Shown: positions 6,001 to 42,844, counted from the whole stretch's first letter. The stretch is 63,745 bases of DNA, filler included, from 3 parts of 3 records of this genome joined end to end with filler, not necessarily neighbours in it; one strand, 5' to 3'. Numbers and translations are program-made. Notes: generated by a model not told the origin, from the letters alone.

Positions 6001-9000
6001 TGCCGAGTGAGTGGTCTCGCCGGTCTGGAGAATGATCTCGGAGCGGTCAAAGTCAAACTCGAAAATGTTGCTCAGGTTCTTCTGCGCCGCAATGCCCGGA
6101 ACGATAATGTACACACCATTGTCCTGTTTGGACACCACGCAGCCGTCCGCCTGGGCCTGGTCACTGAGTACAAGGCTTGTATACCCCGCGCTATGCGTGG
6201 CGACATGGTAGGGGTTCTCGTGGTCGCCTCCGAAGACCCAGTATATGCGGCATTGAGCGCCGTTGCAGTACGGGTCACCATTGCCGTCGCCAGTGGTGTT
6301 GGCGTATATCACACCCGTGTTCCAGTCCGTCCACGCATTCATTCTCATCTCTCCGCTGAACTTGTTCCACTGCCGGACAGTGGAGCCCGAATCCGGCCAT
6401 CCCGGGAAGATCCGTCCGCGGTGATTGCCTAGACAAAATGCGGAGAACTTGGGTGCGAGACCATCCCGCTCCTGGCGGGTGGTGGGTGCCTGGCACACGG
6501 CGTATCGTTTCCAGGAATCCCCGTAAAGTGGGATAACTATCATGGCGAGTCAGTCGCGATCATCACATCAATGGAAAACAGCCGAGAGGAAACTTACAGG
6601 GAGCAAGATCGTTGTAGTGAGAATCAATATGCCAGTAGAGGGCCTGGGAGTGAACAAGCATGAGAACCTCTGGCAGACGCCGAAACAGACATGCCCCCAC
6701 CCACCTCCTCGGAGCCCTTATTATTGTTTGGTTCTCCGCTATTCAAGTAGGCACTGATGCCGTCCATGTTGAAAGGTGTCGGAAACTGCATGCTGATCGA
6801 GCACGACTCTGCAAATATGCCCTCAGTATAAAAGTCGTTGAAGGCAGTCTCAAACGCGATGTATCCGCTCGTCGTAATTGTGGATGTCCAGTAGAGATTC
6901 TGAAGCTCCGTCAGAGGAGCGCCATGGCAACCGCGATGCTGACGGCAGAAATCTGCGCGGACAGGATACGTCTCGCTCGAAAGTTCAGAAGAGCCAAAGA
7001 AGCAGTTTCCCGACTCATCCATGATCAGACATTTGTCCAGTTTTGCATCGTCATATGCATTCATGTCAAATGCCACCCGGTTGACGGAGAATTGCGGATC
7101 CAGTGGATGCAACCACACCGTACCGTTTGTCAGGTGGGTCTCGAAGCGGACCTTGAAGTGGCGACACTTGGTACCGAGGCGGGCCCCAGCAGTCACGGTG
7201 ATCTCGCTGTTGAGCGTGCATGCCGCCTGGGCGGTCCCGCTGTCCGTGACAGACTAAGAGCGAAGGGCGCACTGTCAGCATCATCCCGGACGCGCGGTGC
7301 ACACAGGCTGGGGAATTCTACTCACCTCAGTAGCCGTGCCAATAAGGACAGCCTCGCTGCTATCCTCAAAGAGCTCCAAAATGATATCTACCCTGGTCCA
7401 GTTCACGTTGCGCACGGGCACATCGTTGAAATCAGAGACGGTCACGTAGGCGCGGCTGCAGCTGCGCTGGCCTTGGAGCGTGAATGTGAACCCCTCGATC
7501 TCGGCTGGGTCGGGCACGGAGTTGTAAATGGCTGGCAAGATGTTAGATGATCTGCACATAGAGCGGGTGATGACTCACTGGAGCTGGAGGTGCCTTCTGC
7601 AAATCGTTTCTTCCACCCGAAGCCCGAGCGGCCCTCCACGCATCGGGTCTCGCTCGAATCATCTTCGAAGAAGCCACCACGGTAAACACTGGAAAACACT
7701 TGCCATGCGTATAAATCCGCATCATGATTCACTCGGACGGGCTGAATATAGCCAACAGCACTGGAGGGCTGGTTTGCTAAAGTGAGGTTCTTGAAGCCAT
7801 TGACAGACATCAAATCGAGTGTGAAGGGCGCGTATGTCTTCTCCGCGAAGCATTGCCCTTTCACACAGCAGTGCGAGGGCACCGTGCTGTGTGGCAGGAT
7901 CAGTCATTGCCCCACAACATGATGTAGAGTACCACACGGGTCCCGAACAAATCGACACACACCCCAAACACCTGCCACATACCTGCCAACATCTTTAGTG
8001 ACCAGTCCGTCTGCACATGCCTTGCATTCAGTCTGACCGCGCTTGTCATTGTAGTACCCAATTGCGCAGTCACTGCAGGATGTTGCACCTGGCTCGGCAA
8101 ACTGCCCCTCGGCGCAGTACTGGCAACCACCCGCACCGGCCATCCGCCGGGCCTGACCGTCCGCACATACTGTACATGATCGTGTCAGCGCTCGCGATGA
8201 CCCATTCTTGCAGGAGAGTTCGACTGCGAACCCGTCCGTAGTCCCATTGAGCCCCTGAGCGAGGTCGCCATCCACATTGCCCAGTGCATACACCACGGTG
8301 CCATTCACCGCAACGGCCTCGGTGTGGATGTTGAAGGACGAGTCCTCCTGTAGTACATCGATGATGGCACCAGTGTCCTGAAATAGAATTTCACATCCAT
8401 CAGCACCCATCCCCGAATTAGCCCCCGGGTTTCCGGTTGTACTTACATAGTTGATCTGTATCGCATAGAGGTAGTTCTTGCTTGGCTGAGATTCAGACTC
8501 TGTGGAAACCCTGCTAAGTGCACTTCCAACGGCAATAACGGATCCGTCCGTGAGCTTCACCGCGCCGCTAACGTAGTCGTCATATTCCTGCTCGTAATAC
8601 TTTGCGGGGAACACTGACCACACGCGAGTGCTGAGGTCTAGCGACACCTTCCATACTAGGCCGACGTTGTTTTGAATCTGGCAGACCCCGCACGGGCTCG
8701 GCATCACCGCGCGCTGCTTGGATATGGTGCTGTCGTCGACAGCGATACTATTAATAGAAACAAGCCAGTAGTTGTCATCTGTGCGTGTCAGCGACACTCC
8801 TTGCCACACGGAGTGGATGTAGTTTGACCCATCGACCTCGGACAGCTTCAGGCCCCATCGTGTGGTGGTACTGGCGGAGGAGAGTGCGGAGTCGTACTTG
8901 AGTATCAGCAGGTCCGTGGTGCCATCAGACGTCGTGACGCCATTGATGTCTGCGGTCACCGTCGTGTCTCCGAGAACATAAACATTCCCGCTGCTGTCCA

Positions 9001-9634: not shown

Positions 9635-10922
9635 CGCGGCACGGTGCTACAGTAGACGGGTGGCGGGCTTGGGGCTGCTCTCTACTTGGGTTAGCGACGT
9701 TTGGGAAGGGAGGGAGGGAGGAATAGATGTTTATGTACAACTTCGGCGGCGGGTGGTGGTGCAAGACCCTCATTCCCATGGGTGGCCAAGTACGGTTGGG
9801 TGGGTGGCCACCGTAGAAGAGCCAGCAGATCGCGCGTGGTGCATGCCTAACCTAGGGGGTGCTCGGGGCCTGCGGCTCCACTTGCGGCTCCGGGGGGGCC
9901 CAGGCCATCGGACCCCGTGCGCCCGATGCAGGGCCAGTCATGGCGCCGAATAGGGAACGACTGAACCCTACTCACAGCGGCCGGGCCCGGCAGCCACCCC
10001 GCGGCCAAACGTGATGGTTGCTGCCACCCGGCACGCTACCCAAGGTAGGCTTGTCCCCGCCTGGGCGGGAGCAGCAGCCGTGACAGCTGAGCCGGCTGCC
10101 CAGCCTAACCCTGTCTCTGAGACTGGCAGCCCGCAGGCCGGCGTGCCCCCCAGGGCCCATGACACGAGGATGGCCCGGCTGCCGCCGCAGTCAGGATGCG
10201 AAGCTGGCCGGGTACTGGTATTTTGATATAACGAATCCCTCGAGGCCAGCAAGGAGATGGTGACCGGTTGACTGGGCGTGTACTCGTGTCCTGATGTAAC
10301 GAATCTGTCGTGGCCAGACCCAGCCGAACCATCATCATCCTCCAATCAGACGAGAAAAAACACCTGAACTGGACTGAACGAGTGGGAACGACAACCTGAC
10401 CTGCAACATCTCCCAGTCGGGCAGTCCCGGCGGTGAGTCGGCGGCAATCCGACTCACCGTCACTCTGCCCCCGGCGCCCGCCTCCCGTTCCGGCCCGGCC
10501 CCGGTAGAGGTCATCCCAGGTCCGGCCGCTCAATCACTGGCTGCCCTCCTTGGCCGGCGGGCACGGTGCCAGCGGGAGGTCGCTTGGCCGGCGACTCACT
10601 GGCTCCGCCGGCCCGCCATTGTGTTGGCTGTCAGTGGGATGCCCGGTGGCCAGAGTATTCGAGCCGGGGCCGCCGGGACCAAACCGGCGCGCCGGGCGGA
10701 CCGGGAGCGTGGCCTTCGCGGGTCAGCAGTCTGACCGGCTGACAGAGTGGGTGTTTGATGCCGCCACCGGCTCAGCTCACCGGGGCTGCGAAGAGCCCCG
10801 GCCTGGGCGAGAGGGGGGACCTGGCCCAGCGACTTCAGATATCCCTGGTGTCACACATCAGCATTGGACAAGCCTTGGCTCAGTAGGCCGGACAAGCCGT
10901 GGACTGCGCGGGAAAACTACCG
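9635..10922. promoter_or_regulatory. GC/CpG-rich intergenic region, probable bidirectional promoter
   Basis: Lies between two divergent start codons (9634 and 10923). Rich in CCGG/GGCC with recurring GTGAGTC/GACTCAC; no credible coding frame. Confidence 0.55.
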
Positions 10923-13900
10923 ATGAGCTGGTGGACCTGCCGCCGCCTTGTCCGAGTTGCGGCGGCGCTTGCCGTCTTTGCGATGGCGTGGGTCCCGGTG
11001 ACGACGTCTGACGGTGAGCCTCGGAGATTATTGCCAGCTGGAACCAAACTAACGTCCATTGCTCTTTAACTCTCACAGAGTTCCACACGCTCACAGGTGA
11101 CTTTGTAGCGCATGGGGATGGTCTTGGCCCCCTATATTCCGCGCCAACGACACCGCAGCCTAACTCCACCGAGATATCAAGAATAATGGCGGGTTCGTCA
11201 GTCGCCCTCACTTCAGACTCCGTATGGGTGTATGGCACCCGGGCGTTACGGAATGAGACCGACGGGTCTACTGCGGGGTTCCCTGCACTCTTTGCGCTCC
11301 AGCTGAATAAGTCATCCGTGGCTGTGCAGACTTCTTACAATGAGTTCGATGGGTCCGACGGGTTCGGTGGTGAATACCTTATGTTTTTTCAGAACGTCAA
11401 GGCAGCCGTGTATGACGGAGCGGCATACGTGCTGGCGCAGGGATTTGACTTTGGTGGCGCCAATGCCGTCATCATACGTGCCTCTCTGGACCTCCAGACG
11501 GTGTTCTGGTATACACAACTCAACAAATACGTCGCAGACTTTAACTTCGCCCCGGTCGTCATGGGCATCGGTGGTATTGCCGTGAACTCCAAATTGATTG
11601 CCGTGACGGGCAACTTGTACTCGGACGTCGGAGCAGGTGCATTCGTGCTGGGTTTGGAGCCCATCACCGGCGAGCTGCTGTGGCGAGAGGATATCTCGTC
11701 TCCCCTGAACGAGGAAGGACAGAAGGATACTGATATTGCAACGGCTGTTGCATTTTACGAGACCAATGACGAGGTTGTCTTCACAGGCACATCATATGGA
11801 GACATGGACGGGCCTGGCTTCGCCGTGGGAAATCGGTACGAGGCGGACACGTATGGCGTGGTTGTGGCACAGACGACCGGCGCCATCATCCGAAGGTACA
11901 TGTTTGGCGTGACTGCATCGAATACCGTCTATGGCCTGTATGTCGATGAATCTGAGGGAGTGATGTACCAGGTGGGTATCTCTGCCGCGAATGTGCTAGA
12001 GGGTGGGTTCTAATGGGGCATACTGGGCAGGGTGGTTCTATGGAGATGCTGTTGACACGCCAGTCTGCAATAGCTTCCGTGCGGAGTGCGGCGGGCTCCA
12101 AGGACAACGCTGTTGTCCGGCTGAACTTTGGTCACAAGACCGACTCGGGAAGCCTGTTCCACCGGTACTTTGCGACGTATGGGCTGAAGGGAAAGATGAT
12201 TGCAGCTGGGCAATCGGCAGCGAAGATGGTCCCTGGTGCCAAGAATAGGAACAATCCGACGTCCGCGATGTATCTCATGAACGATGTGAGTAGGCATTCC
12301 GCCCTCCGGTAACCATATTCACTCCCTTTCAGAAAATGGAATTCATGTGGTTCCGGTTTTTGGATATGGAGGGACAGTCTGGTCTTCTTGACATGAAGTG
12401 CGATTCCGAGGCCTGCTACGGTGCGGGATTCTACAAGCCTCTGGAGAGTAATTCTACCTATTATCATGTCATGCGAACACCGCTATGTGGAAACGGGATG
12501 CGGCTCCCCAACGATACGAACTGGGCAGCGAATCAACTGACCGAGTACAATTATTGGTGAGTATCTGCGATGTTTTGTGGTGCACTCGGTCTGCGCTGAC
12601 CACGCTTGAAAAAAGCTACAAGTGTGGCGCGGGGATGTACCAGGATGAGGTTCTCGAGACGACATGTATGTTGTGCCCCCCGGCCTTCCCACGGGGGATT
12701 CCTTCTAACAGATTCCTTCAGGCAAATCATGTTCTCCAGGCTCCTACGCACCAACCGCTGGTCTCGCCAATTGTCTTCCGTGCCCGGCGGGATACTACAC
12801 ATCCCGAAACGAGTCCACCTATTGCGACATCTGCCCGCCCGGAACGTTCTCGACCGCAGGCAGTACGATGTGCACCGGTTGCTCGGCAGGCAGCTACTCT
12901 GCCAATGCGGGCTCGGGCGAGTGCACTCCCTGTGCAGCCGGGTCTGCCTCGGCCGTCCCCAACGCCACCCTGGCATCTGTCTGCGAGACGTGCAGCATAG
13001 GCCACTACCAGCCTAGTGTTGGCCAGTCATCGTGCCTGGAGTGCCCCGGCGGTTCATACAGCAACACCACCGGAGCCACTGAGTGTGCGCTCTGCGAGCC
13101 GGGGCAATATCTTAACGCGACCGCCGCCACCTCCATTGCCGATTGCACCATGTGCCCTGCCGGTACCTATGCCGCATCCGGCGGCAAGGCTGTGTGCGAT
13201 GCCTGGTAAGCCTTGAGATAGAATGTGTGACACCCATGCTATGCTGACCCGATCTGCCCTTCTCAGCCCCTTGGGCCGCTACCAGAACACCACCGGTGCT
13301 ACATCATGCCACCCGTGCCCTGCTACCACGCAAGGCAACGCCACAGGGCTCACCGTTTGTTACCCGTGTCCGCCCGGTTCGTTCGGAGTACTAGAGGGTC
13401 TGGAGAAGTGTTCTAGCTGTGCCGAAGGCACCTTCCAGGACCTATCTGGACAGACATCGTGCCACAACTGTGCTAAGGACACGTTCATGCCGTTCACCGG
13501 CGGAACGCAATGCTTCAGCTGCCCGGACTTCTCGTCGACGCAGGAGAGTGAGGCGACGGACACAATGTTTGGATGCAAATGCATTGACAATTACTTTGGG
13601 AAACCCGGTGAGGGGCGCAAGTGCCAGCCATGCCCCGCCTTTGCCTCTTGCCAGCCAGATGACCGGTACCCGAGGATGGATCCTGGCTCATGGCAATCCA
13701 GTGACGACACAAACACGATTTACTACTGCCAACCCCGGATCAGCTGCCCGGGAGGAATCCCGGACCTTCCCGAAGTCAACATCACCAATGCCGTGACTCG
13801 TCCCGAGGACGTCCAGCTGCGGTGGACAGACCTGGAACCGATCAGGGCTATGGAGGCCACAAGGCAGGCGGATGCGCGGATGCGGGCACTCAGCACCACG

Positions 13901-31654: not shown

Positions 31655-32917
31655 CTATTCCCCGTGTGCCTTGAGCAGCGCTCTTGTTTCAGGAGCCTTG
31701 ATAAACTTTTCGTAAAGCGCGGCCTCTGTCTTTGGAGCGCTGTTCTTTTTGCCACCGAAAAGGCTGGGCTTCTTTTTGTAATAAGCAGCGAAGTAATTGT
31801 TCATGAACTGGGTACGGGAAGAACCCGAGCGGTGCTCATGTTTGGTCTCTTCTTTCAAACCTTCAACACCATCCGTCATCGAACTGAAAAGACCACCGGA
31901 CTTGGCATCATCTCCCGTCTCGCTGCTACCTGCGGTGAGGAACCCGAAAAATGCATTGCCGCTTTCTTTCTGGCCATCCGAAGACGCGTTCGTTCCACCA
32001 CCAGATTTTTCGGCGAGCTGAATTTTCTGGTTCGCCCCTTCCGCAGCCAAGCGCGCGGACTGAACTGTGGGGCCATCACTTTCCCAAGCGCTAACGGTTC
32101 CCAGCGCTGACGTCACCGAAGCCCCACCATAGCCGCAGCCACGCACTATATCCGCGCCAAGCATATCAGCCTGATCCTCCTGGAAACGTTTGGCTACATT
32201 TTCCAAGCGCCGATCAAATCCGACCTCGTCACCCATTGCCCGGCTGACAGCACCACCAACCGTCTTGAAGCCCGAGAGAAGCCCGCCTCCAATGCTGCCC
32301 AGCATACCTCCACCGGATGAATCTGAATCTGCTGCACTTCGCGCCACATCCCCTATCGGGTCGATAGAGTGTTGCATGATCACATGCGCATATTCGTGAC
32401 TGATAAAGAACAGAAGGTGTCGAGGGTCTTTCGTTTTGCTGAATAATCGCGGATCGACCAGAATAATTCCGCTTTTCCGAGCCTCCAGCAAAAGACTGGT
32501 ATCAGTCGGCAATCTATCGCGCTTGTGAGCAATGCGGAACTCTACCGGGACTTTCGGTATGTCTTCCTTTACGCGCGCTAGGCAGCCCTGCAGGAGATTA
32601 CTCAAAAAAGCTTCTGCGACTGGTGCCTTCAGAACCACGATACTCTGTTTGGCTATATCGATTTCGTCTTCGGCGCGACGTGCCTGCAAGGCAGCCGGGC
32701 TGAGATCATGGCGGGAGAACATCTCCGGGTAGATCCGGATCATGCGGTCCTCGGGAAGCTCCTGATCCATCAACTCCATGCTCGTTGTGCCGTCCTTATT
32801 TTTGACCTCGAGCCACTTGAAGCCACTATTCTCATCAATGAAGTAGTTCTTATCCTCCGCTGCGGCTGGAACAGCCGCGAGCATCAGAATGGCCAGCGCC
32901 ACACCGACGGTCCTCAT
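31655..32917 (-). CDS. Secreted M48-like zinc metallopeptidase
   Basis: Signal peptide MRTVGVALAILMLAAVPAAA; SHEYAHV; downstream QEDQADMLG; ATGA overlap with the upstream gene. Confidence 0.75.
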   Translation of the reverse strand: MRTVGVALAILMLAAVPAAAEDKNYFIDENSGFKWLEVKNKDGTTSMELMDQELPEDRMIRIYPEMFSRHDLSPAALQARRAEDEIDIAKQSIVVLKAPVAEAFLSNLLQGCLARVKEDIPKVPVEFRIAHKRDRLPTDTSLLLEARKSGIILVDPRLFSKTKDPRHLLFFISHEYAHVIMQHSIDPIGDVARSAADSDSSGGGMLGSIGGGLLSGFKTVGGAVSRAMGDEVGFDRRLENVAKRFQEDQADMLGADIVRGCGYGGASVTSALGTVSAWESDGPTVQSARLAAEGANQKIQLAEKSGGGTNASSDGQKESGNAFFGFLTAGSSETGDDAKSGGLFSSMTDGVEGLKEETKHEHRSGSSRTQFMNNYFAAYYKKKPSLFGGKKNSAPKTEAALYEKFIKAPETRALLKAHGE

Positions 32918-33309
32918 TTCGTGCACCCTGCGCCAAAACCTCGCCCGGTACCGCCCGAACCAGCGGCGACGGATGAGACCTGCGTCCGGCATTTTTTCTG
33001 AAACTCGGCGTCGAGGTTAGTCTCAACATCCTCGGAACGAATAAGGAATTTTTTTCCCCCATCAATTTGAATTTCATAGGCCGCGCCGTCGGCTATCGAA
33101 TCCAGAATTGATATTTTTTTGCCTTCCAGCTCAATGCGAAGAAGCGCACCCGCCGGCTCCTGGGTATCCAAATCAAACAGGTCCAGTTGCGGCGGCAGGA
33201 TCTTGGTCACGCTCGTGGGTGTGTCTGCTGAGGCCCAATTTACTATAACCACACCTGCAAGCAACATCACAGCAAGCCCAAAGGTTTTGAAATAACGCAA
33301 GAAATTCAT
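32914..33309 (-). CDS. Hypothetical secreted protein with a C-terminal Cys pair flanking a Gly-rich stretch
   Basis: Signal-peptide-like N-terminus; ends KCRTQVSSVAAGSGGTGRGFGAGCTK; ATGA overlaps on both sides. Confidence 0.8.
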   Translation of the reverse strand: MNFLRYFKTFGLAVMLLAGVVIVNWASADTPTSVTKILPPQLDLFDLDTQEPAGALLRIELEGKKISILDSIADGAAYEIQIDGGKKFLIRSEDVETNLDAEFQKKCRTQVSSVAAGSGGTGRGFGAGCTK

Positions 33310-34859
33310 ATCGACTCTCCCCTGATCGATTGATTTCGCAAAACTGAAGTCAACAGTTGAAGCAACCGGGAAAGCCCCCGCTCCAGTGCTTCAAAATAGA
33401 AACTCCCCGAAACGCCACGGACCGTTGCAATCAGCCCAAAAAGACCAAGAAGGTTCAGCGGCGCTAACCGGAAGAGCCAGACCTGAACGATTGTCAGGAG
33501 CAGTAAGATCGACAGGTAAAAACCGTGTGCCGCCAAACTCACGATCAAATGCCGTCCTAGTTTCCGGTCATCTTTTTGGAGAAAGCTCTCGGTCGAGAAA
33601 GAAGCGAACGCATGGATCGTGCTCAGCAACACGAGGGCTACGAGAAACACTGTTTCCGGCGTGACAGTGACCGATCGGGCAGCATCTTCAGAGAGGAACG
33701 GAACCGATATGCTGATTTTTGATTTCAGATAATTGTCACCATCGCGACGCAAATTTTCCAGAGCCATGGCATGGCGATATCCTGAAGAAACCCGAGGTTG
33801 CGTCGGCGGGTCGACAAAGTCTGAAACGCCGACTAGAGCTTGCCCGTAAACAACATCCTTGCCAGCAATGCGGTCTGACAGCTCTTTTGCGACATAAGCG
33901 CTTGCCGACGGAGAGAACCCTTCATGCAACAGGTTCGTCACCGATATCACTGGCATATAGGGGCACTGCTCCTCGGCCTTTGCGACACTTTCGAACATCA
34001 CTGTGGACAAGAGCTTCTTGCTCACGTCCCACACCGATTGCTTAGCCGAATAATTGCAGCCCTTCAGAAAATCATTCTTCGCGGACGGTACGATCCCCCA
34101 TTGGATTTGAAGTGGGCTTTCGAACCGAAGATCATCCGCACTGGGTTTCAATTCGGATTTCCCGCAATCGCCTCTGGAACAGCCATGCAGGTAGAGTGCA
34201 AAGGCGGGGAAAGTCCTTTCAAAGCCTCGCTTTTCGTAATCTTCTTTGCTGGCTCCCTCATTCGAACGCGACGCGCGCGTTACTTTCCGCAAAATATATT
34301 CTTCGTCATTCAGTCCTTGTTGAGCGCGCGTTGCCAAAACAGTACGGGTAAGGTCCCGAATTTCTGCGCGTTGCCGTTTAAACGGCAATACCGGCAAATA
34401 GACCGGGATCTCCGCCTCAATGTACTTCTCTAAAACCGGAACCAGCCGTCCAATAGTCGGATCTTCCCGCTGGTCGATAAACAGGAAGTCCATATAGATC
34501 GATCGTGGGCGATATTTCAAAATTTCATCAAGGACCCGGGCATGGTTTTGATAGCTGACCGGCCAAATCCAGTCATGTGACCGTAAATCGCGGTCATCAA
34601 TCATGACGACGGGAACATTATCCCGCTCAGCAGTATCGTGAAACGGTGCAACTAAAAGGCTATAAGCCCTGTAGGTGAAATTTTCCGTTATCCCCCCAAG
34701 TCCAAACAGATCTGTAAAAACTCCAAACAGCACAAAGGCTAAGACCAGAAAAAGCCTGATCAGCCGCGCTTTAAGTCCGCCGTAGCAATGCAGGAGGCTA
34801 CGCCCCCGATAATTGCGGATGAACTCGGTAACAAGCCCTCTGTTTTGAGCTTCTGACAT
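33306..34859 (-). CDS. CHASE2-domain membrane protein without a cytoplasmic output domain
   Basis: N-terminal TM; VVMIDDRDL..WPVSYQNHARVL..PRSIYMDFLF; GKDVVYG..SGYRHAMALENL; three C-terminal TM segments then a short tail. Confidence 0.8.
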   Translation of the reverse strand: MSEAQNRGLVTEFIRNYRGRSLLHCYGGLKARLIRLFLVLAFVLFGVFTDLFGLGGITENFTYRAYSLLVAPFHDTAERDNVPVVMIDDRDLRSHDWIWPVSYQNHARVLDEILKYRPRSIYMDFLFIDQREDPTIGRLVPVLEKYIEAEIPVYLPVLPFKRQRAEIRDLTRTVLATRAQQGLNDEEYILRKVTRASRSNEGASKEDYEKRGFERTFPAFALYLHGCSRGDCGKSELKPSADDLRFESPLQIQWGIVPSAKNDFLKGCNYSAKQSVWDVSKKLLSTVMFESVAKAEEQCPYMPVISVTNLLHEGFSPSASAYVAKELSDRIAGKDVVYGQALVGVSDFVDPPTQPRVSSGYRHAMALENLRRDGDNYLKSKISISVPFLSEDAARSVTVTPETVFLVALVLLSTIHAFASFSTESFLQKDDRKLGRHLIVSLAAHGFYLSILLLLTIVQVWLFRLAPLNLLGLFGLIATVRGVSGSFYFEALERGLSRLLQLLTSVLRNQSIRGESI

Positions 34860-35042
34860 TCCATCCCCACTCAGAAGCGCGGAATAACAAATTATTCAAT
34901 TAATGCGCGCTTTTAAAGTTAACAAAATGATAAGATTTGGCAACGTTTCGTCTTGGAATAATTTTCAAATGCTGCCTGATACGGCTTCCTCAACAAGACA
35001 CCTGTCCTTGACAAGTTTGTGACCGCGCCGCAGGTTGGCCCG

Positions 35043-35128
35043 GTGATGCTGGGGTGTTCCGGGTGACCGGAACTGAGAGGATACCCATCGAACCTGATCC
35101 GGGTCATGCCGGCGCAGGGAGACGTCAC
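35043..35128 (+). ncRNA. TPP riboswitch (THI element)
   Basis: GGGGTG..CTGAGA..ACCC..GAACCTGATCCGGGTCATGCCGGCGCAGGGAG. P1 gtgatg/cgtcac, P3 gttccgg/ccggaac, P5 ccgg/ccgg. Confidence 0.93.
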
Positions 35129-35214
35129 GAGACTGCATCAGCGGTCGCGTCAGGTCCTCTCGCCCCGATTTTGAATCTACCGTTCCGCCGAGCGGGACTA
35201 TTGGAGTGCCGGGA

Positions 35215-36330
35215 ATGTTCCTGAAATCCGCCGCTGTTGCGCTGACCGCGCTGATGGCTACTGCGTTGACCGCAAAAGCCGAGACAATCCCCGTGCTGGT
35301 GCCGATCACCGGCTTCCTGTCGCTTGAGGGCAGCTCCCAGCGCAATGGCGCGGTGCTGGCCATCGAGCGCTATGGCAAGGATCTCGATCTGGACGCCGAA
35401 GTGACCGACACGGGCACGTCTCCCGAGGGTGCCGTCACCGCATTGCGCCGCGCACTGGAGGGCGAACCGACCGCCGCCGTTGCCTCCATGCTCGGCACGC
35501 AGATGCTTGCCATGCTGCCGATCGCGGGCCGCGCCGGTGTGCCGCTGCTCACCGTTTCCGGCACGGCGAAGATCACAGAAATCGGTATTCCCTGGGTATT
35601 CCGTTTCTTTCCCGGCGACAGCGTTGTGAAGGTGGCGCAGGCCCGGTACGCGGTCGAGGAGCTCGGCGCCAAGCGCCCGGCCCTTCTGTATCAAACCACC
35701 GCCTACGGGCAGAGCGGCGCGGAACATCTGCGCCGGATCATGCAGGATCTCGGTGCGCCGCTGGTATTCGAAGAAGCCATCGACATCTCCGTGAAGGACA
35801 TGCTGCCGGCCCTGACCCGGATGCAGGAAGCCAAACCCGACCTGATCCTGCTGCATCTGCATTCCGGCTCCACCGCTCTGGTGATCCGCCAGGCGCGGGA
35901 CCAGAACATCGCCCTGCCGATCCTTGCCGGCTCCGCCATGCACCAGCCGACCACGGCTGCCCTGCTGGAGCCGAAGCAGCTCGCCGGTGTCTGTGCCGAA
36001 AGCGCCTCCTCGCCGATTTCCGAGCCGGAAGGGCCGGTCGAGGATTTCACGTCGGAATACCGGGCCCGTTTTGGCGCCGAGCCGGACGCTTTCGCGCTGG
36101 CCCAGTATGACGGCGCCACCATGATGATCGCTGCGCGGAATTCAGGCGCCAAAACCGCAGAAGAAGTGCGAGACTGGCTGGCAAACAACAGCTATGACGG
36201 GCTCGCCATGACCTACAAATCCGACGGCAAGGGCAACATGGCGCATGACGCGGTCATTGTTTGTTACGACGGCAAAAGCGCGGTGCCCGCAATCAAGCGG
36301 CGCTACGAGAATGTCAGTGGCGTGAAATAA
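35215..36330 (+). CDS. HAAT/LIV-family ABC transporter substrate-binding protein (under the TPP riboswitch)
   Basis: Signal peptide; WVFRFFPGD, TTAYGQSG, YRARFGAEPDAFALAQYDG; GGAG 8 nt before ATG 35215. Confidence 0.88.
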   Translation: MFLKSAAVALTALMATALTAKAETIPVLVPITGFLSLEGSSQRNGAVLAIERYGKDLDLDAEVTDTGTSPEGAVTALRRALEGEPTAAVASMLGTQMLAMLPIAGRAGVPLLTVSGTAKITEIGIPWVFRFFPGDSVVKVAQARYAVEELGAKRPALLYQTTAYGQSGAEHLRRIMQDLGAPLVFEEAIDISVKDMLPALTRMQEAKPDLILLHLHSGSTALVIRQARDQNIALPILAGSAMHQPTTAALLEPKQLAGVCAESASSPISEPEGPVEDFTSEYRARFGAEPDAFALAQYDGATMMIAARNSGAKTAEEVRDWLANNSYDGLAMTYKSDGKGNMAHDAVIVCYDGKSAVPAIKRRYENVSGVK

Positions 36331-36354
36331 GCAGCCACCCGGCAACACCCCAGC

Positions 36355-37248
36355 ATGTCAGCCATTGCCCTCACCCAGATCCTGCTGAACGGCCTCGCTC
36401 TCGGGGCCGCTTACGCCTTGATCGCACTCGGCTTCGTCATCGTGCTGAATGCGGCGGGAGCGGTGAATTTCGCCCAGGGCGAGCTGGTCATGGCGGGCGG
36501 GTTCGCCGCCATCGCGCTTGCCCCGCTGATCGGTGAGACGACGGCGCTTCCGGGACTTTTCCTGCTGCCGCTGGTGATGGGGCTGATGGGGTTGATCGGG
36601 GCCGGGTTTGCCTGGATTGCCTATTTCCCCGTCCGCAAACGCCACCAGGTCGCGGTCTTCGTCAGCACCATCGCCGCCGGGCTGGTGCTGCAGCATCTGG
36701 CGAACGCCGTTTTCGGCGCTGCGCCCCGCGCTGGACCACCGCTGATCTCCGGTAATGGCCTGACAGTCGGCGCCCTCTCCATCTCGCTTCAGCAGATCGC
36801 CGTAATGATCTGTGCCGCCGTGCTGATTTCCGGCACGGGGCTGTTTCTCGGCCGCACCCAGACCGGACGGCATATGCGGGCCGTGGCGCAGGACCCGGAA
36901 ATGGCCGCCGCCATCGGCATCCGGCCGAAACGCATGATCACGCTGTCCTTTGCGCTCGCCATCGCGCTCGCGGGCGCGGCGGGCCTGCTGCTGTCCAACC
37001 AGTTCTTCGTCAGTCCGAACGATGGCGGACTGTTCATGCTGAAAGCCTATATCGCGGTCACCATCGGCGGCTGGGGCAGGCTCGACGGGGCCGTGATCGG
37101 CGCGCTGCTGATCGGTATCTTCGAGACACTCGTGGCCGCGTTCGCCTCCTATCTGGTGGCGGAGGCACTGCTCTATGCCCTGCTGCTGATCATGCTGGTC
37201 TTCCGGCCTTCCGGGTTGCTGCCGGAGCGGGCCCGCGCCCGTGTCTGA
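36355..37248 (+). CDS. LivH-like ABC permease
   Basis: NGLALGAAYALIALGF, VNFAQGELVM, TGRHMRAVAQD, IGGWG. Confidence 0.92.
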   Translation: MSAIALTQILLNGLALGAAYALIALGFVIVLNAAGAVNFAQGELVMAGGFAAIALAPLIGETTALPGLFLLPLVMGLMGLIGAGFAWIAYFPVRKRHQVAVFVSTIAAGLVLQHLANAVFGAAPRAGPPLISGNGLTVGALSISLQQIAVMICAAVLISGTGLFLGRTQTGRHMRAVAQDPEMAAAIGIRPKRMITLSFALAIALAGAAGLLLSNQFFVSPNDGGLFMLKAYIAVTIGGWGRLDGAVIGALLIGIFETLVAAFASYLVAEALLYALLLIMLVFRPSGLLPERARARV

Positions 37249-38908
37249 CCCGCGCTCCCGTCTGGCTCTGGGCGTCGTCGCCATTGCGCTGGCGCTCTAT
37301 GCCCTGTTCTTTGCCGGCGATTACGCGCTGCACGTCCTGACCCGCGCCGGAATCTATGCCATCGCCGCCATCGGCTATCAGCTCATCTTCGGCCGCCTTG
37401 GCGCCCTGTCGCTGGCGCAGGGCTGCTTCTTCGGGCTCGGCGCCTATGCGGCTGGTCTTGGCGCGCTGGAACTCGGCCTCGGATTTCCGCTGACGCTGGC
37501 CGCCGGCATCCTGCTACCGAGCCTTCTCGCGGCGCTCATCGCCATTCCCGTGCTCCGTCTCGCCTCGCACTATTTCGCGCTCGCCACCCTCGGCATCGCC
37601 CAGCTCGGCCTGCTCGTCGCGACCAACTGGACGGCGGTCACCGGCGGTGCGAACGGACTCTACGGAGTACCGCCCATCGAGATCGGCGCGGTTTCCATCG
37701 GGCATGGCTTGCCGCTCACCATGCTGGTCTGGGCTTGTGTAGGACTTGCCCTCACCATCTCGCACCGGATGACAGCCGGGAAACGCGGGCTTGCGGTCGA
37801 AACCCTGCGGGAAGCGCCTCTAGCCGCCGGCGCGCTCGGTATCGACGGGGCCGCGATCCGCTTTCGCTTCTTCGTCGCCAGCGCAGCCCTCGGCGGCCTT
37901 GCGGGGGCGTTGCAGGCACACGCGATCGGTGTCGTCTCGCCGGACGTGCTGCAATTCCATGTCCTCGCTCTGATTCTCGCCATGAGCGTGATCGGCGGAC
38001 ACGCCTCCCCCCTCGGGGCCGTACTTGGCGCCCTGCTGCTCGTCCATCTGCCGGAATGGTTCCGGGACTTTGCCGACTATTACCTTGTGGTCTATGGCGC
38101 GGCCCTGCTCGCCGCCATCATCTTCCTGCCGCGCGGGCTTGCCGGTCTGTTCGGGACAAACAAAACGCCCGCAGCAACACCAGAAAAGGATATGGCACCG
38201 CGCCCGCCTGCTGCGCTCAGGTTAACGGTGGAAACGGTCTCCAAGCATTTCGGCGGCGTGACCGCGCTCGACGGAGTCTCCCTCACCCTTGCCCCCGGCG
38301 AAATTCTCGGCCTGATAGGCCCGAACGGTTCCGGCAAGACAACGCTGGTCAACCTGCTCTCCGGCATCGAAAAGCCGGATGGAGGGCGCGTCCTGCTCGG
38401 TGATGCCGACATTACCGGAAGGCCTCCGGAATACATCGCCCGTTCCGGTCTCTGCCGCAGCTTCCAGCATCCGCAGATCGCGCCGGACCTGACCGTGCTG
38501 GAGAGCGTCGAGGCGGTCACGACAGAGGGAGAGAGTGCCGATGCCCGCGTGACAGAAGTCGGGCTCTCAGACGGTGCGAACGAAAAAGCCGGAACCCTGC
38601 CACCGGCAGCCCTGAAGCATCTCGAAATCGCCCGCGCCCTTGCCGCCGGTGCCTCCATCCTGGCTCTGGACGAGCCGGCCGCCGGGATGAACGAGGTGGA
38701 GCGCGCGGAACTCTCCGCCTTGCTGAAACGGCTGGCGGATGCGGGCCACGGCATCCTGCTGATCGATCACGCGATGGACTTCCTGCTGCCTCTGGCGGAC
38801 CGGGTGGTCTGCCTCAGCGCCGGGCAGGTCGTTGCCGAGGGAACACCCAGCGACGTTGCCCGCGATCCGGCAGCCATCAGTGCCTATTTCGGGGAGAGCC
38901 CGCTGTGA
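37241..38908 (+). CDS. Fused LivM-like permease / LivG-like ATPase
   Basis: YFALATLG and TGGANG permease motifs, then GPNGSGKTT, LEIARALA, LDEPAAG. Confidence 0.9.
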   Translation: MSDPRSRLALGVVAIALALYALFFAGDYALHVLTRAGIYAIAAIGYQLIFGRLGALSLAQGCFFGLGAYAAGLGALELGLGFPLTLAAGILLPSLLAALIAIPVLRLASHYFALATLGIAQLGLLVATNWTAVTGGANGLYGVPPIEIGAVSIGHGLPLTMLVWACVGLALTISHRMTAGKRGLAVETLREAPLAAGALGIDGAAIRFRFFVASAALGGLAGALQAHAIGVVSPDVLQFHVLALILAMSVIGGHASPLGAVLGALLLVHLPEWFRDFADYYLVVYGAALLAAIIFLPRGLAGLFGTNKTPAATPEKDMAPRPPAALRLTVETVSKHFGGVTALDGVSLTLAPGEILGLIGPNGSGKTTLVNLLSGIEKPDGGRVLLGDADITGRPPEYIARSGLCRSFQHPQIAPDLTVLESVEAVTTEGESADARVTEVGLSDGANEKAGTLPPAALKHLEIARALAAGASILALDEPAAGMNEVERAELSALLKRLADAGHGILLIDHAMDFLLPLADRVVCLSAGQVVAEGTPSDVARDPAAISAYFGESPL

Positions 38909-39624
38909 GCTCCTCACTGCTCTCTTTCCGGAATGTCTCGGTGCGGCGTGGCGGCGCGATAGCCGTGCGCGATCTCACGCTCGATATTGCACCGGGTGAG
39001 ATTGTCGCCCTGATTGGCCTGAATGGCGCCGGCAAATCGAGCATTCTACGGGCAGCCATGGGGCTGGAAGCGCTCACAGAGGGCAAAATCCTGTTCCGTG
39101 AGCAGTCACTTGCCGAAATGGGCACACCTGAGCGGGCGCGGCGCGGCATCGGATATTGCCCAGAAGGGCGCCGCCTGTTCCCCGGCATGAGCGTTTCGGA
39201 CACGCTGCATGCGGCGATGCAGGCACCGCGCAGGCAACGCCTCGCACGGATCGAAGAGCTCACAAATCTCTTCCCCCTGCTCGGCACCATACTTGACCGG
39301 GAGAGCTGGAGCCTCAGCGGCGGGCAGCAACAGGTCGTCGCCATCGCCCGCGCGCTGATGCAGCGCCCGGAAATCCTGCTGCTGGACGAGCCGTCTCTCG
39401 GCCTTGCCCCCGTCATCTGTCAGGAGCTGTTTCCGGCCATCCGGCAACTCGCGAATGACGGTGCTGCCGTGCTGCTGGCTGAACAGAGCACAGCCACGGC
39501 CCTCGCTGTCGCCGACCGGATAGCGGTGCTGCATCGGGGCACTCTTGTCCTGAACGAGCCCGTAGCGGCACTTTCTCACGACCGCTTGAAAACAATCCTG
39601 CTTTCCGAGGGTGAACAGCACTGA
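38905..39624 (+). CDS. LivF-like ABC ATP-binding protein
   Basis: GLNGAGKS, PEGRRLF, LSGGQQQ, LDEPSLGLAP. Confidence 0.92.
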   Translation: MSSSLLSFRNVSVRRGGAIAVRDLTLDIAPGEIVALIGLNGAGKSSILRAAMGLEALTEGKILFREQSLAEMGTPERARRGIGYCPEGRRLFPGMSVSDTLHAAMQAPRRQRLARIEELTNLFPLLGTILDRESWSLSGGQQQVVAIARALMQRPEILLLDEPSLGLAPVICQELFPAIRQLANDGAAVLLAEQSTATALAVADRIAVLHRGTLVLNEPVAALSHDRLKTILLSEGEQH

Positions 39625-39680
39625 CGCTTGGTTTATGCTCGCCAAAAATCGACTTGCCCGCCTTAGGAGATCCCCCGTCG

Positions 39681-40367
39681 ATGGACGAGAGCCAGACACC
39701 CGACTTCCGCCAGAGCATCGCCGAGACCGCAGCGAATATCCTGCTTGAAATCGAAGCCGTTCACATCCGCCCGGAAGAGCCGTTCACCTTCACATCCGGC
39801 CGGCTCAGCCCGGTCTATGTGGATTGCCGCAAGATCATCAGCTTCCCGCGTGCCCGGACGCAGCTGATGGAAATGGGCGTCGAGCTGCTCGCCCAGAAAG
39901 CCGGGTTCGAGCAGTTCGATGCCGTGGCCGGCGGCGAGACGGCAGGCATTCCCTTCGCAGCCTGGATCGCCGACCTGCTCGGCCTGCCGATGCTCTATAT
40001 CCGCAAGAAGCCAAAAGGCTTCGGCCGCAATGCCCGGATCGAGGGCACCTTCGAGGATGGCGCGCGCATCCTGCTGGTCGAGGACCTGGCGACGGACGGT
40101 GGCTCCAAGCTCTCCTTCATCGACGCTATCCGCGAGGCTGGCGGCGAGGTCGCCCACTGCTTCGTGGTGTTCCATTACGGCAACTTCCCGCAAAGCACCT
40201 CTTCCATGAAGGAAAAGGGCGTGGATCTGCATGGGCTCTGCACCTGGTGGGATGTCCTGGCGGCGGCGGAGAAGCGTGGCTTCACCCAAGCACAGCTCAA
40301 TGAAGTGCGTCAGTTCCTGCGCGATCCGGATGGCTGGGCCGCCAGCCGCGAGACCGTCGACGTCTGA
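39681..40367 (+). CDS. pyrE: Orotate phosphoribosyltransferase
   Basis: TSGRLSPVYVDCR, GGETAGIPF, RKKPKGFGR, LVEDLATDGGS. Confidence 0.95.
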   Translation: MDESQTPDFRQSIAETAANILLEIEAVHIRPEEPFTFTSGRLSPVYVDCRKIISFPRARTQLMEMGVELLAQKAGFEQFDAVAGGETAGIPFAAWIADLLGLPMLYIRKKPKGFGRNARIEGTFEDGARILLVEDLATDGGSKLSFIDAIREAGGEVAHCFVVFHYGNFPQSTSSMKEKGVDLHGLCTWWDVLAAAEKRGFTQAQLNEVRQFLRDPDGWAASRETVDV

Positions 40368-40407
40368 TAAGAATCAAAGCAGTAAAAATCAAAATGGGGG
40401 AAGAGTG

Positions 40408-41031
40408 ATGCTGAGGATTCTCGGCCGTAACAATTCGAGCAACGTGCAGAAGGTGACATGGCTCTGCGAGGAGCTGTCGATACCGAACGAGCGCGAGGAT
40501 TTCGGAGGGGCCTTCGCCAACACGAAAGACAGTCATTACCTTTCGCTGAACCCCAACTCCCGGGTCCCGACGATTATCGAGGACGATTTTGTCCTCTGGG
40601 AATCCAACGCCATCGTTCGCTACCTCTGCAACAAGTACTCGGCTGGCGACATGGCCCCGGCGGACCCGCGTGCCTATGCGGATGCGGACCGCTGGATGGA
40701 TTGGCTGCAGACCACCGTTCTGGCCCCGATCACGGTGATTTTCTGGGGTCTGGTCCGGACACCCGAAGCAGAGCGCGATCTGGCGGCGATAGAGGCCGCG
40801 CGGGAAAGCATGATCCCGATCTGGAAAATCCTCGACGAACGGCTGACGGGCCGCGACTACATCATGGGCGACAGGCTGACCATGGCGGACATCGTGCTTG
40901 CCATAAACTGCTATCGCTGGCTGACCTTGATCCAGGACCGGCCGTCCATGCCCGCGCTGGAAGCCTGGTACGCGCGCATTGCCGCACGGCCAGCCTTCAA
41001 GAAGCATGTGCTGGATATTCCGCTTACCTGA
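40408..41031 (+). CDS. Glutathione S-transferase (GstB/YliJ-like)
   Basis: ILGRNNSSNVQKVTW, LNPNSRVPTI, WESNAIVRYL, DRWMDW. Confidence 0.93.
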   Translation: MLRILGRNNSSNVQKVTWLCEELSIPNEREDFGGAFANTKDSHYLSLNPNSRVPTIIEDDFVLWESNAIVRYLCNKYSAGDMAPADPRAYADADRWMDWLQTTVLAPITVIFWGLVRTPEAERDLAAIEAARESMIPIWKILDERLTGRDYIMGDRLTMADIVLAINCYRWLTLIQDRPSMPALEAWYARIAARPAFKKHVLDIPLT

Positions 41032-41119
41032 TCACCGATGCAGGGGCACGGCGCTGGAAATCACCCGCCGTGCCTCCTATCCTTATAAGATCTATCCACT
41101 GAGACGGAGACAGCCCCCG

Positions 41120-42820
41120 ATGCGACGATCCGCCCGCGTCCTGACCTTCTGGCTGCTCCTGTTTCTTTCCCTGCTTCCCCTTGCCCGCTCAGCCGATGCG
41201 CGCGAACAACTTGTCATCGGGATCACCCAGTTCCCGACGACCCTGAACCCGATGATCGATTCCATGCTGGTGAAGACCTATGTGCTCGGCATGGCGCAAC
41301 GGCAGGTCACCATATTCGGCCATGACTGGGAGCCGATCTGCCTCTGGTGCACCGAGTTACCGACCTTCGAGAACGAGCGGGCGAAACGCTTTGCTCTGCT
41401 CGATGCCACGGGGAAGGAAACCGGCCGCGAAGGCGTGCGGACCACCTACACCATCAAGCCCGGTGCCTTCTGGGGCGACGGCACGCCGATTACCACCGAT
41501 GACGTACTTTTCAGCTGGGAAGTCGGGCGCCATCCGGAAACCGGCGTCGCGGATGCCAACAGCTATCAGGAAATTGTCGATATCGAGGTCGAGGACGAGC
41601 GCACCTTCAGCATCGTCCGGGACAAGATCGATTACCGCTACAACACGCTCGGCGATTTCCAGCTCCTGCCCGCCCATCTGGAACGCGCCGCTTTCGCGAA
41701 CCCTCAGGAATACAAGAACCGCACCCTCTACAAGACCGCGCCCGGCACGCCAGGCCTCTATAACGGCCCCTACCGGGTCACGGAGGTGAATGAGGGCGCC
41801 TATATCGTGCTGGCCCGGAACGAGCACTGGAAAGGCAAGGAGCCAGCCTTTGAGCGTATCGTGGTCAAAACCATCGAAAAGACCGCCGCGCTTGAGGCCA
41901 ATCTGCTTTCCGGCTCCATCGACTATATCGCGGGCGAGGCCGGACTCACCCTCGATCAGGCGCTCGGTTTCGAGAAACGCCATGGCGACACGTTCGACGT
42001 CATCTACAAACCCGGCCTGATCTACGAGCATATCGAGTTCAATCTCGACAACCCGGTGCTGGCCGACGTCAAGATGCGCCGGGCCCTGCTCCATGCCATC
42101 GACCGGCAGGCGATCTCCGACAGACTGTTCGACGGCAACCAGCCGGTCGCCCATGGCGCGGTCAACCCGCTGGACTGGGCCTATCACGACAAGCTGCCGC
42201 TCTATCCCTATGATCCGTCCCGCGCCAAGGCGCTGCTGGACGAGGCAGGCTGGACCGTGATTAAGGACGGTGTCCGGTACAGGCCGGACGGCACGAAGCT
42301 CAGCCTGGAGATCATGACCACGGCCGGGAACCGGATCCGGGAGCTGGTCGAACAGGTGCTGCAGGATTACTGGAAAAAGGTCGGCATCGAGGTGACGATC
42401 CGGAACGAGCCCGCCCGGGTGTTCTTCGGCGAGACCGTTCTGAAGCGTAAATTCCCGGCTATGGCCATGTTCGCCTGGCTGTCGGCACCGGAATCCCTGC
42501 CCAAGACCACGCTCTATTCAACCTCGATCCCGACAGAGGCGAACAACTGGGCCGGACAGAACGCCACCGGCTACAACAATCCTGAAATGGATGCGCTGAT
42601 CGACGCCATCGAAGTCGAGCTCGACCGGGAAAAGCGCCGCGCCCTCTGGGCCGAGCAGCAGATCCTCTATGCCACGGACCTGCCGGTCATTCCGCTCTAT
42701 TTCCGGTCCGAGGCCTATATCCTGCCGAAATGGCTGAAGGGCCTGAGGCCGACCGGGCACAAATACAGCTCCACCTACTGGATCGAACAGTGGCGCGACG
42801 GATCGAGCGCGAGCCAGTAG
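41120..42820 (+). CDS. Peptide ABC transporter substrate-binding protein (family 5)
   Basis: Signal peptide; WGDGTPITTDDVLFSW, NGPY, RRALLHAIDR, DLPVIPLY. Confidence 0.93.
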   Translation: MRRSARVLTFWLLLFLSLLPLARSADAREQLVIGITQFPTTLNPMIDSMLVKTYVLGMAQRQVTIFGHDWEPICLWCTELPTFENERAKRFALLDATGKETGREGVRTTYTIKPGAFWGDGTPITTDDVLFSWEVGRHPETGVADANSYQEIVDIEVEDERTFSIVRDKIDYRYNTLGDFQLLPAHLERAAFANPQEYKNRTLYKTAPGTPGLYNGPYRVTEVNEGAYIVLARNEHWKGKEPAFERIVVKTIEKTAALEANLLSGSIDYIAGEAGLTLDQALGFEKRHGDTFDVIYKPGLIYEHIEFNLDNPVLADVKMRRALLHAIDRQAISDRLFDGNQPVAHGAVNPLDWAYHDKLPLYPYDPSRAKALLDEAGWTVIKDGVRYRPDGTKLSLEIMTTAGNRIRELVEQVLQDYWKKVGIEVTIRNEPARVFFGETVLKRKFPAMAMFAWLSAPESLPKTTLYSTSIPTEANNWAGQNATGYNNPEMDALIDAIEVELDREKRRALWAEQQILYATDLPVIPLYFRSEAYILPKWLKGLRPTGHKYSSTYWIEQWRDGSSASQ

Positions 42821-42844
42821 CAGCATGAGAGTCCCCGGATCATC

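Follow-up and report, generated by a model that had tools for sequence, protein, structure and literature searches.

Most aquatic bacteria are unable to make vitamin B1 (thiamine) and subsist on the vitamin itself or on fragments of it. ThiBPQ, the importer of thiamine, thiamine monophosphate (TMP) and thiamine pyrophosphate (TPP) in E. coli and Salmonella, is an ATP-binding-cassette (ABC) system with a periplasmic binding protein under control of a TPP riboswitch. ThiXYZ is likewise a TPP-riboswitch-controlled ABC importer, with a thiamine precursor as its cargo. Sun et al. (2013) list 19 TPP-regulated transporter genes (thiXYZ, ykoFEDC, cytX, thiU, thiW, ecfA/T, thiT, pnuT, thiBPQ, omp_thi and thiW-ecfAA; PMC3766115), none of them of the Liv type, which bears out the view of a preliminary description of the present locus that the known TPP-regulated transporters belong to other families. 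Here, an operon is analysed that lies within a 63,745-base stretch of DNA (the window) and places a HAAT-family (Liv/Urt-type) ABC importer behind a complete TPP riboswitch. This riboswitch-controlled importer is real, strongly conserved and apparently undescribed. The leader and the operon comprise the following features.

35040-35138, + strand: complete TPP riboswitch aptamer (THI element), Rfam RF00059
35150-35169, + strand: switching box with core UCCUCUCGCCCC, a predicted anti-aptamer/anti-Shine-Dalgarno segment (folding prediction)
35203-35217, + strand: Shine-Dalgarno GGAG (35203-35206) and ATG start (35215-35217), read from the sequence
35215-36330 (alternative start 35206), + strand: periplasmic substrate-binding protein of the type I class, 371 aa (Peripla_BP_6, PF13458, 1.2e-45)
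36355-37248, + strand: LivH/UrtB-like permease (BPD_transp_2, PF02653, 8.2e-33)
37241-38908, + strand: LivM-like permease fused to a LivG-like ATPase in one open reading frame (ORF), 555 aa (PF02653, PF00005, PF12399)
38905-39624, + strand: LivF/UrtE-like ATPase (ABC_tran, PF00005, 9.8e-33)

Judged by its domain content, the operon is an ABC importer of the HAAT family (Liv/Urt-type, TC 3.A.1.4). It encodes the full set of family components, namely a Peripla_BP_6 binding protein, two BPD_transp_2 domains, two ATPases and one BCA_ABC_TP_C tail; in the LivM-LivG fusion, PF02653 covers residues 29-292, PF00005 residues 343-480 and PF12399 (BCA_ABC_TP_C) residues 529-552. The tight coupling of the four genes described earlier is confirmed by the domain matches and by the spacing (+24, -8 and -4 nt between successive genes), as is the lack of any thi biosynthesis gene in the operon. 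The likely start of the binding protein is ATG 35215, which follows GGAG at 35203-35206 and yields a typical signal peptide, MFLKSAAVALTALMATALTAKA/ET. The operon differs from ThiBPQ in its ABC family: ThiBPQ combines a ThiB-like protein (SBP_bac_1/6/8/11) with one long permease, as seen at L118 and L119, and its cargo includes free thiamine, which is probably not carried by the Liv-type system. ThiXYZ, an importer for the salvage of pyrimidines and formylaminopyrimidine, belongs to the nitrate/sulfonate/taurine family, with an NMT1 binding protein and a BPD_transp_1 permease, and neither domain was found in the Liv-type operon by Pfam. Most genomes with the Liv-type system (carriers) also encode ThiXYZ, which probably supplies the pyrimidine half of the vitamin. 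Compared with LivJ/K-HMGF and UrtABCDE, the operon has the same domain families, gene order, fold and BCA_ABC_TP_C tail, and is set apart by the LivM-LivG fusion, the TPP riboswitch and equivalog scores below the cut-offs. The binding protein reaches 48.3 bits against a cut-off of 477 for the LivJ/LivK model NF011933, and 37.2 against 494.8 for the urea-binding model; the ATPase at 38905-39624 scores 179 against 441 for LivF. The LivH and LivG equivalog models also remained below cut-off, and the urea transporter models (TIGR03409/03411/03410 and TIGR03669 were tested) gave 143.7 against 250.3 bits for UrtB, 168.5 against 304.1 for UrtD and 201.1 against 285.8 for UrtE.

The binding protein also matches PF01094 (ANF_receptor) at 1.9e-12, and its AlphaFold2 model (pLDDT 89.2) shows a typical type I binding protein with Foldseek TM scores of 0.75-0.84 to LivK-like structures. 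The nearest structures in the Protein Data Bank (PDB) are LivK, LivJ, Atu2422, AmiC and aromatic-acid binding proteins, all at no more than 22% identity, and the ligands of these binders are amino acids, amides, urea and aromatic carboxylates; no thiamine-related structure was found among the PDB sequence and fold matches. Names in public databases and in the ESM Atlas are generic ("ABC transporter substrate-binding protein", "branched-chain amino acid transport system"). As every matching model is of the Liv/Urt kind, the equivalogs fall far below cut-off and the names are generic, these comparisons make the family clear but not the ligand.

The aptamer is the sole Rfam match at gathering threshold in the full window. 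The cmscan score of 65.7 bits (gathering cut-off 54.3, E 1.2e-10) extends untruncated over model positions 1-105 of 105, so that the complete THI element of the preliminary description is borne out. The reported distance of 87 nt to the gene also holds, being counted from the 3' strand of P1 to ATG 35215; 76 nt separate the end of the Rfam match from that ATG. In an alignment with 10 orthologous aptamers, the cores CUGAGA and ACCUGAUC...GCCGGCG are invariant or near-invariant. Downstream, the switching box (core UCCUCUCGCCCC) is near-invariant across seven Nisaea leaders. In the minimum-free-energy fold of the full leader, positions 35154-35167 of the box are base-paired to the aptamer segments 35050-35055 and 35075-35082. 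In a fold of the leader without the aptamer, which mimics the ligand-bound state, 35155-35169 pair with 35200-35214 and cover the Shine-Dalgarno sequence. A translational OFF switch of the usual design is predicted from these folds. At high TPP, binding of the ligand to the aptamer would free the conserved downstream box, which would pair across the Shine-Dalgarno sequence and block translation of the binding protein; at low TPP the box would pair with the aptamer core and the operon would be expressed. An intrinsic-terminator mechanism is unsupported, as no terminator-like site was found on the + strand of the leader.

Nisaea denitrificans, N. nitritireducens and Nisaea metagenome-assembled genomes (MAGs) encode binding proteins with 94-96% identity to that of the window, and N. 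denitrificans (G001) together with its GTDB order (63 genomes, G001-G063) was taken to stand in for the genome of the window. A wider scan with one genome per species returned 379 stretches with a relative of the binding protein, the best 80 of which were analysed. These loci derive from Nisaea, Thalassobaculaceae, SAR116-labelled single cells, Azospirillum, Skermanella, Thalassobaculum, Reyranellaceae and many alphaproteobacterial MAGs. With the Rfam gathering threshold applied, 10 of the 11 loci tested have a TPP aptamer immediately before the gene. These 10 aptamers and that of the window served to build a covariance model (the 11 training sequences match by construction), which detected a + strand aptamer 20-270 nt ahead of the binding-protein match in 73 of the 80 loci. 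Four of the seven misses (L002, L018, L046, L069) start within the gene or shortly before it, and 73 of the 76 loci with upstream DNA thus carry an aptamer before the orthologue; the other three (L043, L054, L066) are genuine misses, with no aptamer even when filters are off. In whole-genome Rfam scans of the Nisaea order, all 41 assessable carriers have an aptamer immediately before the binding-protein gene, 35 at or above the gathering score and six at 46.6-49.6 bits; in four further carriers the gene lies at a contig start. The four-gene order, fusion included, is kept wherever downstream DNA suffices, and the LivM-LivG fusion is matched over at least 94% of its length in nearly all loci with enough downstream DNA. 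Recurrence in 73 of 76 orthologous loci puts the pairing of riboswitch and operon far beyond chance, and repeated precedence of the orthologues by a TPP riboswitch, which the preliminary description had proposed to look for, is established on both samples.

Two side observations concern individual copies. Of the three loci that lack an aptamer, two are in genomes with ThiG, namely G105 and G079, the latter with riboswitch-preceded thiC and thiO as well. In the 2.2-Mb genome G063, the match at C26:44789-45538 covers only residues 121-370 of the binding protein and contains four in-frame stops behind an intact aptamer; this copy may be a pseudogene.

The distribution of the importer within the Nisaea order follows the thiazole branch of B1 synthesis. 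N. denitrificans has three TPP riboswitches, located before thiC, before ThiX and ThiY (NMT1/THI5-like) and before the Liv-type operon. The binding protein is present in 45 of the 63 genomes. ThiG was found in none of these 45 carriers, and all 11 genomes with a true ThiG (E <1e-90) lack the binding protein (Fisher p 5e-8 for this exclusion, with phylogeny ignored). Neither Thi4 nor thiamine pyrophosphokinase (TPK) was detected in any of the 63 genomes, and ThiO and ThiS were absent from four of four ThiG-less genomes tested, the Azospirillum control being positive. Conversely, ThiE is present in 61 of 63 genomes, and ThiD and ThiL in five of five tested. ThiC is restricted to nine genomes of the order, all among the 10 whose binding protein is 76-96% identical to that of the window and which were taken as the Nisaea clade. 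In nine of these 10 genomes a riboswitch-controlled ThiC is kept and the thiazole branch is absent; judged by gene content, thiazole is the only part missing from B1 synthesis in this clade. ThiM occurs in 11 of the 63 genomes, nine of them carriers. In each of the nine it is directly preceded by a TPP riboswitch of its own, and the TPP regulon of these genomes contains no uncharacterised transporter other than the Liv-type system.

A second riboswitch was surveyed in 19 further genomes of the order. It precedes ThiY, with or without ThiX and TenA, at 15 loci (one in the non-carrier G044), and elsewhere a ThiBPQ-like operon (G019, G022), a LuxE-LuxC-ThiZXY-short-chain dehydrogenase cluster (G058) or thiM (G036); one locus, L121, reached only the contig end. 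At L112, L113, L123 and L129 (G008, G024, G039 and G009), TPP riboswitches directly precede NMT1/THI5-like proteins that have neither a permease nor an ATPase next to them; TenA comes after two of these proteins and a luciferase-like monooxygenase after one, and they may be orphan ThiY binding proteins or THI5-like synthases of hydroxymethylpyrimidine (HMP) phosphate. What may be called an orphan ThiE genotype recurs in G001, most of G001-G063 and G067-G085, genomes that retain ThiE, ThiD and ThiL and frequently have ThiY or TenA under riboswitch control. In these genomes ThiG, ThiO, ThiS, Thi4, ThiM and TPK were not found (ThiO and ThiS having been tested in four).

The proposal of a new HAAT-family uptake system for thiamine or a thiamine precursor under TPP control is supported by the conserved pairing, by the absence of the family from the list of Sun et al. 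and by the pattern tied to auxotrophy. That the cargo is a B1 vitamer of some kind is very probable. On balance, the operon is best described as a TPP-repressed HAAT importer recruited to B1 acquisition, with the thiazole moiety as the likeliest cargo; taken by itself, the assignment of the thiazole moiety is reached by elimination and is given slightly less than an even chance. Elimination proceeds from the remaining TPP regulon. The other riboswitch targets in carriers are ThiY/ThiX/ThiZ with or without TenA (pyrimidines), the ThiBPQ-like system (two genomes) and thiC, and none is a known thiazole transporter. The pyrimidine and thiamine importers coexist with the Liv-type system and do not replace it. 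As these targets cover the other vitamers, and as relatives that make thiazole and need pyrimidine lack the importer, thiazole is what is left. Carriers outside Azospirillaceae have ThiE, ThiD, ThiL and usually riboswitch-controlled pyrimidine salvage, without known sources of thiazole phosphate. In 20 genomes outside the order, the TPP regulon consists essentially of the Liv-type operon and ThiZ/ThiX. The retention of ThiE in about 50 thiazole-less genomes, and of the costly ThiC in Nisaea, makes sense only if thiazole phosphate is available.

The likeliest cargo would be hydroxyethylthiazole (HET), carboxythiazole (cHET) or a phosphate ester of either. The secreted binding protein would capture the vitamer, which would be imported by the LivH-like and LivM-like membrane domains working with the two ATPase domains. 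In the cell, ThiE would receive the cargo as thiazole phosphate and couple it to HMP pyrophosphate, which would come from ThiC in Nisaea or from pyrimidine salvage via ThiY/ThiX/TenA in relatives; ThiL would then make TPP. The step to thiazole phosphate would call either for a new thiazole kinase or for import of thiazole that is already phosphorylated. On a joint reading that is given less than an even chance, the operon may be the missing high-affinity importer for cHET, HET or their phosphate esters, with the carriers (alphaproteobacteria with ThiE, ThiD and ThiL and without ThiG, Thi4 or ThiM) using a ThiM-independent route to thiazole phosphate. This route, as part of the same tentative reading, could consist of a new kinase or of direct uptake of the phosphorylated thiazole, and an orphan ThiE way of life would then be widespread among marine and soil bacteria that are Rhodospirillales-like. 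By analogy, a family with hydroxybenzoate binders could plausibly accommodate a planar ring carboxylate such as cHET. The aromatic-carboxylate binders of the HAAT family (R. palustris RPA0668, PDB 4evq; 4ey3) have the same fold as the window protein (Foldseek E about 5e-21 to 5e-20, 17-18% identity) and show that the family can hold planar ring carboxylates, as cHET is; they have no thiamine link and no riboswitch, and are no closer to the window protein than amino-acid binders. A second point of comparison is ThiW, which usually clusters with thiM, whereas Liv-type carriers mostly lack ThiM. If the thiazole assignment is right, ThiW, a predicted thiazole S-component of energy-coupling factor (ECF) transporters, would be the functional counterpart of the Liv-type operon; it is among the TPP-regulated transporters of PMC3766115. 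It is, however, an ECF-type membrane protein without a binding protein and is unrelated in sequence.

Several observations weigh against a thiazole importer or limit the case for it. ThiM is the only HET/cHET kinase known, and it was found in just 10 of 87 carrier genomes (9/45 in the order; 0/5 and 1/37 outside). Its absence from the other 77 means that the thiazole model needs a new kinase or a phosphorylated cargo. No substitute thiazole kinase was found beside ThiE and ThiD or in the Nisaea thiC and ThiX/ThiY operons, the genes seen there being efp, an inositol-monophosphatase-like gene, gap, tkt, a glmM-like gene, purC and similar. The exclusion of ThiG and importer breaks down outside the order, where ThiG is present in 22 of 42 carriers, mostly Azospirillum and Skermanella, in which the riboswitch-linked Liv-type system stands alongside riboswitch-controlled thiO-thiS-thiG and thiC. 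Among 40 further carriers, 19 have ThiG and 21 lack it; 16 of the 19 are genomes of 5.8-9.7 Mb, nearly all Azospirillum or Skermanella (one is Roseomonas genomospecies 6 and one a Proteobacteria MAG), and the remaining three are a related MAG and two genomes whose loci lack the riboswitch. Within the order, the ThiG-positive genomes probably form only two or three clades, and the exclusion therefore reflects few independent events. Two carriers, G019 and G022, have the ThiBPQ-like system and no riboswitch-controlled ThiY. Moreover, the thi genes of the window's genome are read from the relatives with 94-96% identical binding proteins, and many of the genomes are MAGs for which completeness figures are lacking, so that a single absence is weak and the pattern across dozens of genomes stronger. 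Structure and sequence comparison of the binding protein returns "LivK-like" only. The switching mechanism, finally, relies on minimum-free-energy folds of nearly invariant sequences, which are too alike for covariation to show in the switching box. As for the earlier suggestion of thiamine, thiazole or pyrimidine as cargo, elimination favours thiazole, and the near-absence of ThiM is left unexplained. The link to B1 exchange with protists proposed in the preliminary description finds no support in these data.

The alternative that deserves most attention is an importer of intact thiamine or, more plausibly, of TMP/TPP, i.e. a HAAT analogue of ThiBPQ. Most carriers lack ThiC, ThiG and ThiM, and as far as known enzymes go, TMP and TPP are the only vitamers that could sustain them; with ThiL in five of five genomes, such a cargo needs no new enzyme. 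The prototrophic, ThiM-less Azospirillum would keep the Liv-type system as E. coli keeps ThiBPQ. On the other hand, uptake of TMP/TPP would leave ThiE, ThiD, the riboswitch-controlled ThiY/TenA and the ThiC of Nisaea without purpose, and no pyrophosphate ligand is known for any type I LivK-like binding protein. Free thiamine would, as far as gene content indicates, have no known route of entry or activation: TPK was detected in none of the 63 genomes, and NF007620, presumably thiamine kinase, was not detected in the five genomes tested. G019 and G022 carry their riboswitch-controlled ThiBPQ-like system besides the Liv-type importer, and the ThiG-positive relatives that are auxotrophic for HMP do without it, which speaks against this alternative. 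Import of the intact vitamin or its phosphates is therefore regarded as unlikely, if well short of negligible.

These same relatives bear on two further explanations. A pyrimidine vitamer, namely HMP, aminomethylpyrimidine (AmMP) or formylaminopyrimidine (FAMP), would be used directly by ThiD with or without TenA and would need only enzymes that are present (ThiD in five of five, TenA in some); most carriers lack ThiC, and a pyrimidine would be usable also in the ThiM-less prototrophs. Yet riboswitch-controlled ThiY/ThiX/ThiZ pyrimidine systems already exist in most carriers, and the Liv-type system is missing from all 11 relatives that have ThiG but no ThiC, whose need is for precisely a pyrimidine. 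ThiC-positive Nisaea keep it, and a pyrimidine cargo would leave the missing thiazole phosphate unexplained; this reading is accordingly held to be very improbable. Marginally less probable still is a TPP-sparing role, in which an ordinary (e.g. branched-chain) amino-acid importer is induced when TPP-dependent acetolactate synthase and keto-acid dehydrogenases fail. All four proteins match Liv/Urt models and the nearest structures bind amino acids, and the control of B12-independent isozymes by B12 riboswitches offers a precedent for sparing (Sun et al. 2013, PMC3766115). The LivJ/K, LivH, LivG, LivF and Urt equivalog scores lie far below their cut-offs, however, the identity to any solved amino-acid binder does not exceed the 22% given above, and no sparing function is found among the TPP-regulated genes of that study. 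The importer also tracks ThiG rather than auxotrophy in general, as HMP-auxotrophic ThiG-positive genomes lack it.

If the Liv-type system carries a B1 vitamer, genomes now scored as lacking known uptake of B1 or its vitamers would be reclassified, among them Nisaea, Thalassobaculaceae, SAR116-labelled genomes, Azospirillum, Skermanella and many MAGs. A second problem is exposed by the dozens of genomes that keep ThiE, ThiD and pyrimidine salvage with no known source of thiazole phosphate. Should the cargo be thiazole, the operon would encode a high-affinity bacterial importer for this half of the vitamin, none having been identified previously. Paerl et al. (2018) refer, in the parts of the text available, to thiazole-precursor transport systems of unknown sequence identity (PMC5899164). 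No description of a Liv/HAAT-type TPP-regulated transporter was found in the full-text literature, most subscription papers and RegPrecise lying outside the search. The accessible parts of Kazanov et al. (2007) name thiB, omr, thiXYZ, thiV and unassigned cases (PMC2211319), and the B1-genotype markers in Table 1 of Bittner et al. (2024) do not include a Liv-type system (PMC10881298); the portions available of PMC9870897, PMC12442306 and PMC11223231 do not contain one either. The alphaproteobacteria in the supplementary figure of Sun et al. are Caulobacterales, Rhodobacterales and Rhizobiales, and "Azospirillum" was not found in the accessible part of that supplement (PMC3766115).

The operon is flanked in the window by genes of other functions.

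31655-34859, - strand: CHASE2-domain protein and M48-peptidase-like protein, upstream of the operon
39654-41031, downstream of the operon: pyrE (likely start ATG 39682), then a glutathione S-transferase (GST) gene, from family matches
40979-44736: Opp/Dpp-type binding protein (SBP_bac_5) and further ORFs at 42845-43813 and 43810-44736 (both + strand)

The CHASE2-domain gene is divergent from the operon. The 57-nt gap between the operon and pyrE contains no terminator-like site, and read-through transcription into pyrE and GST is possible. For the 80 orthologous loci, neighbouring ORFs were clustered by all-against-all BLAST and representatives were scanned against families. No thi gene or kinase linked to the operon was found in these neighbourhoods, and the vicinity to thiM, thiE, thiD or tenA considered in the preliminary description was not seen in them. 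GST follows the operon in many loci (a cluster of 25), after an ORF of about 220-236 aa in the place of pyrE; at the thresholds used, this ORF gave no family match in the two orthologous loci scanned. In 19 loci of the Azospirillum/Skermanella type (within L026-L079, at about 10360-11960; e.g. L048:10455-11564), a same-strand ORF of about 370-440 aa follows directly after LivF. It has a signal-peptide-like N-terminus and no Pfam or NCBIfam match, and may be a fifth gene of the operon in Azospirillaceae.

TPP riboswitches also precede genes of other enzymes in some of these genomes. At L157 (G073:C21, - strand, 415-1428 and 2-343) a riboswitch is followed by an ApbA/PanE-family reductase and an aldo/keto reductase; the Liv-type orthologue of G073 itself lacks a riboswitch. 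A LuxE-like acyl-protein synthetase gene lies behind a TPP riboswitch at L120 (G058:C22, - strand, 583-6434), L093 (Azospirillum brasilense, G064) and L102 (A. rugosum, G066). In G058 it is followed by a LuxC-like acyl-CoA reductase, ThiZ, ThiX, ThiY and a short-chain dehydrogenase, an arrangement suggestive of a route that reduces an oxidised thiamine fragment from carboxylate to alcohol. A comparable association, of OarX with an acyl-CoA synthetase, appears in the available part of PMC11223231.

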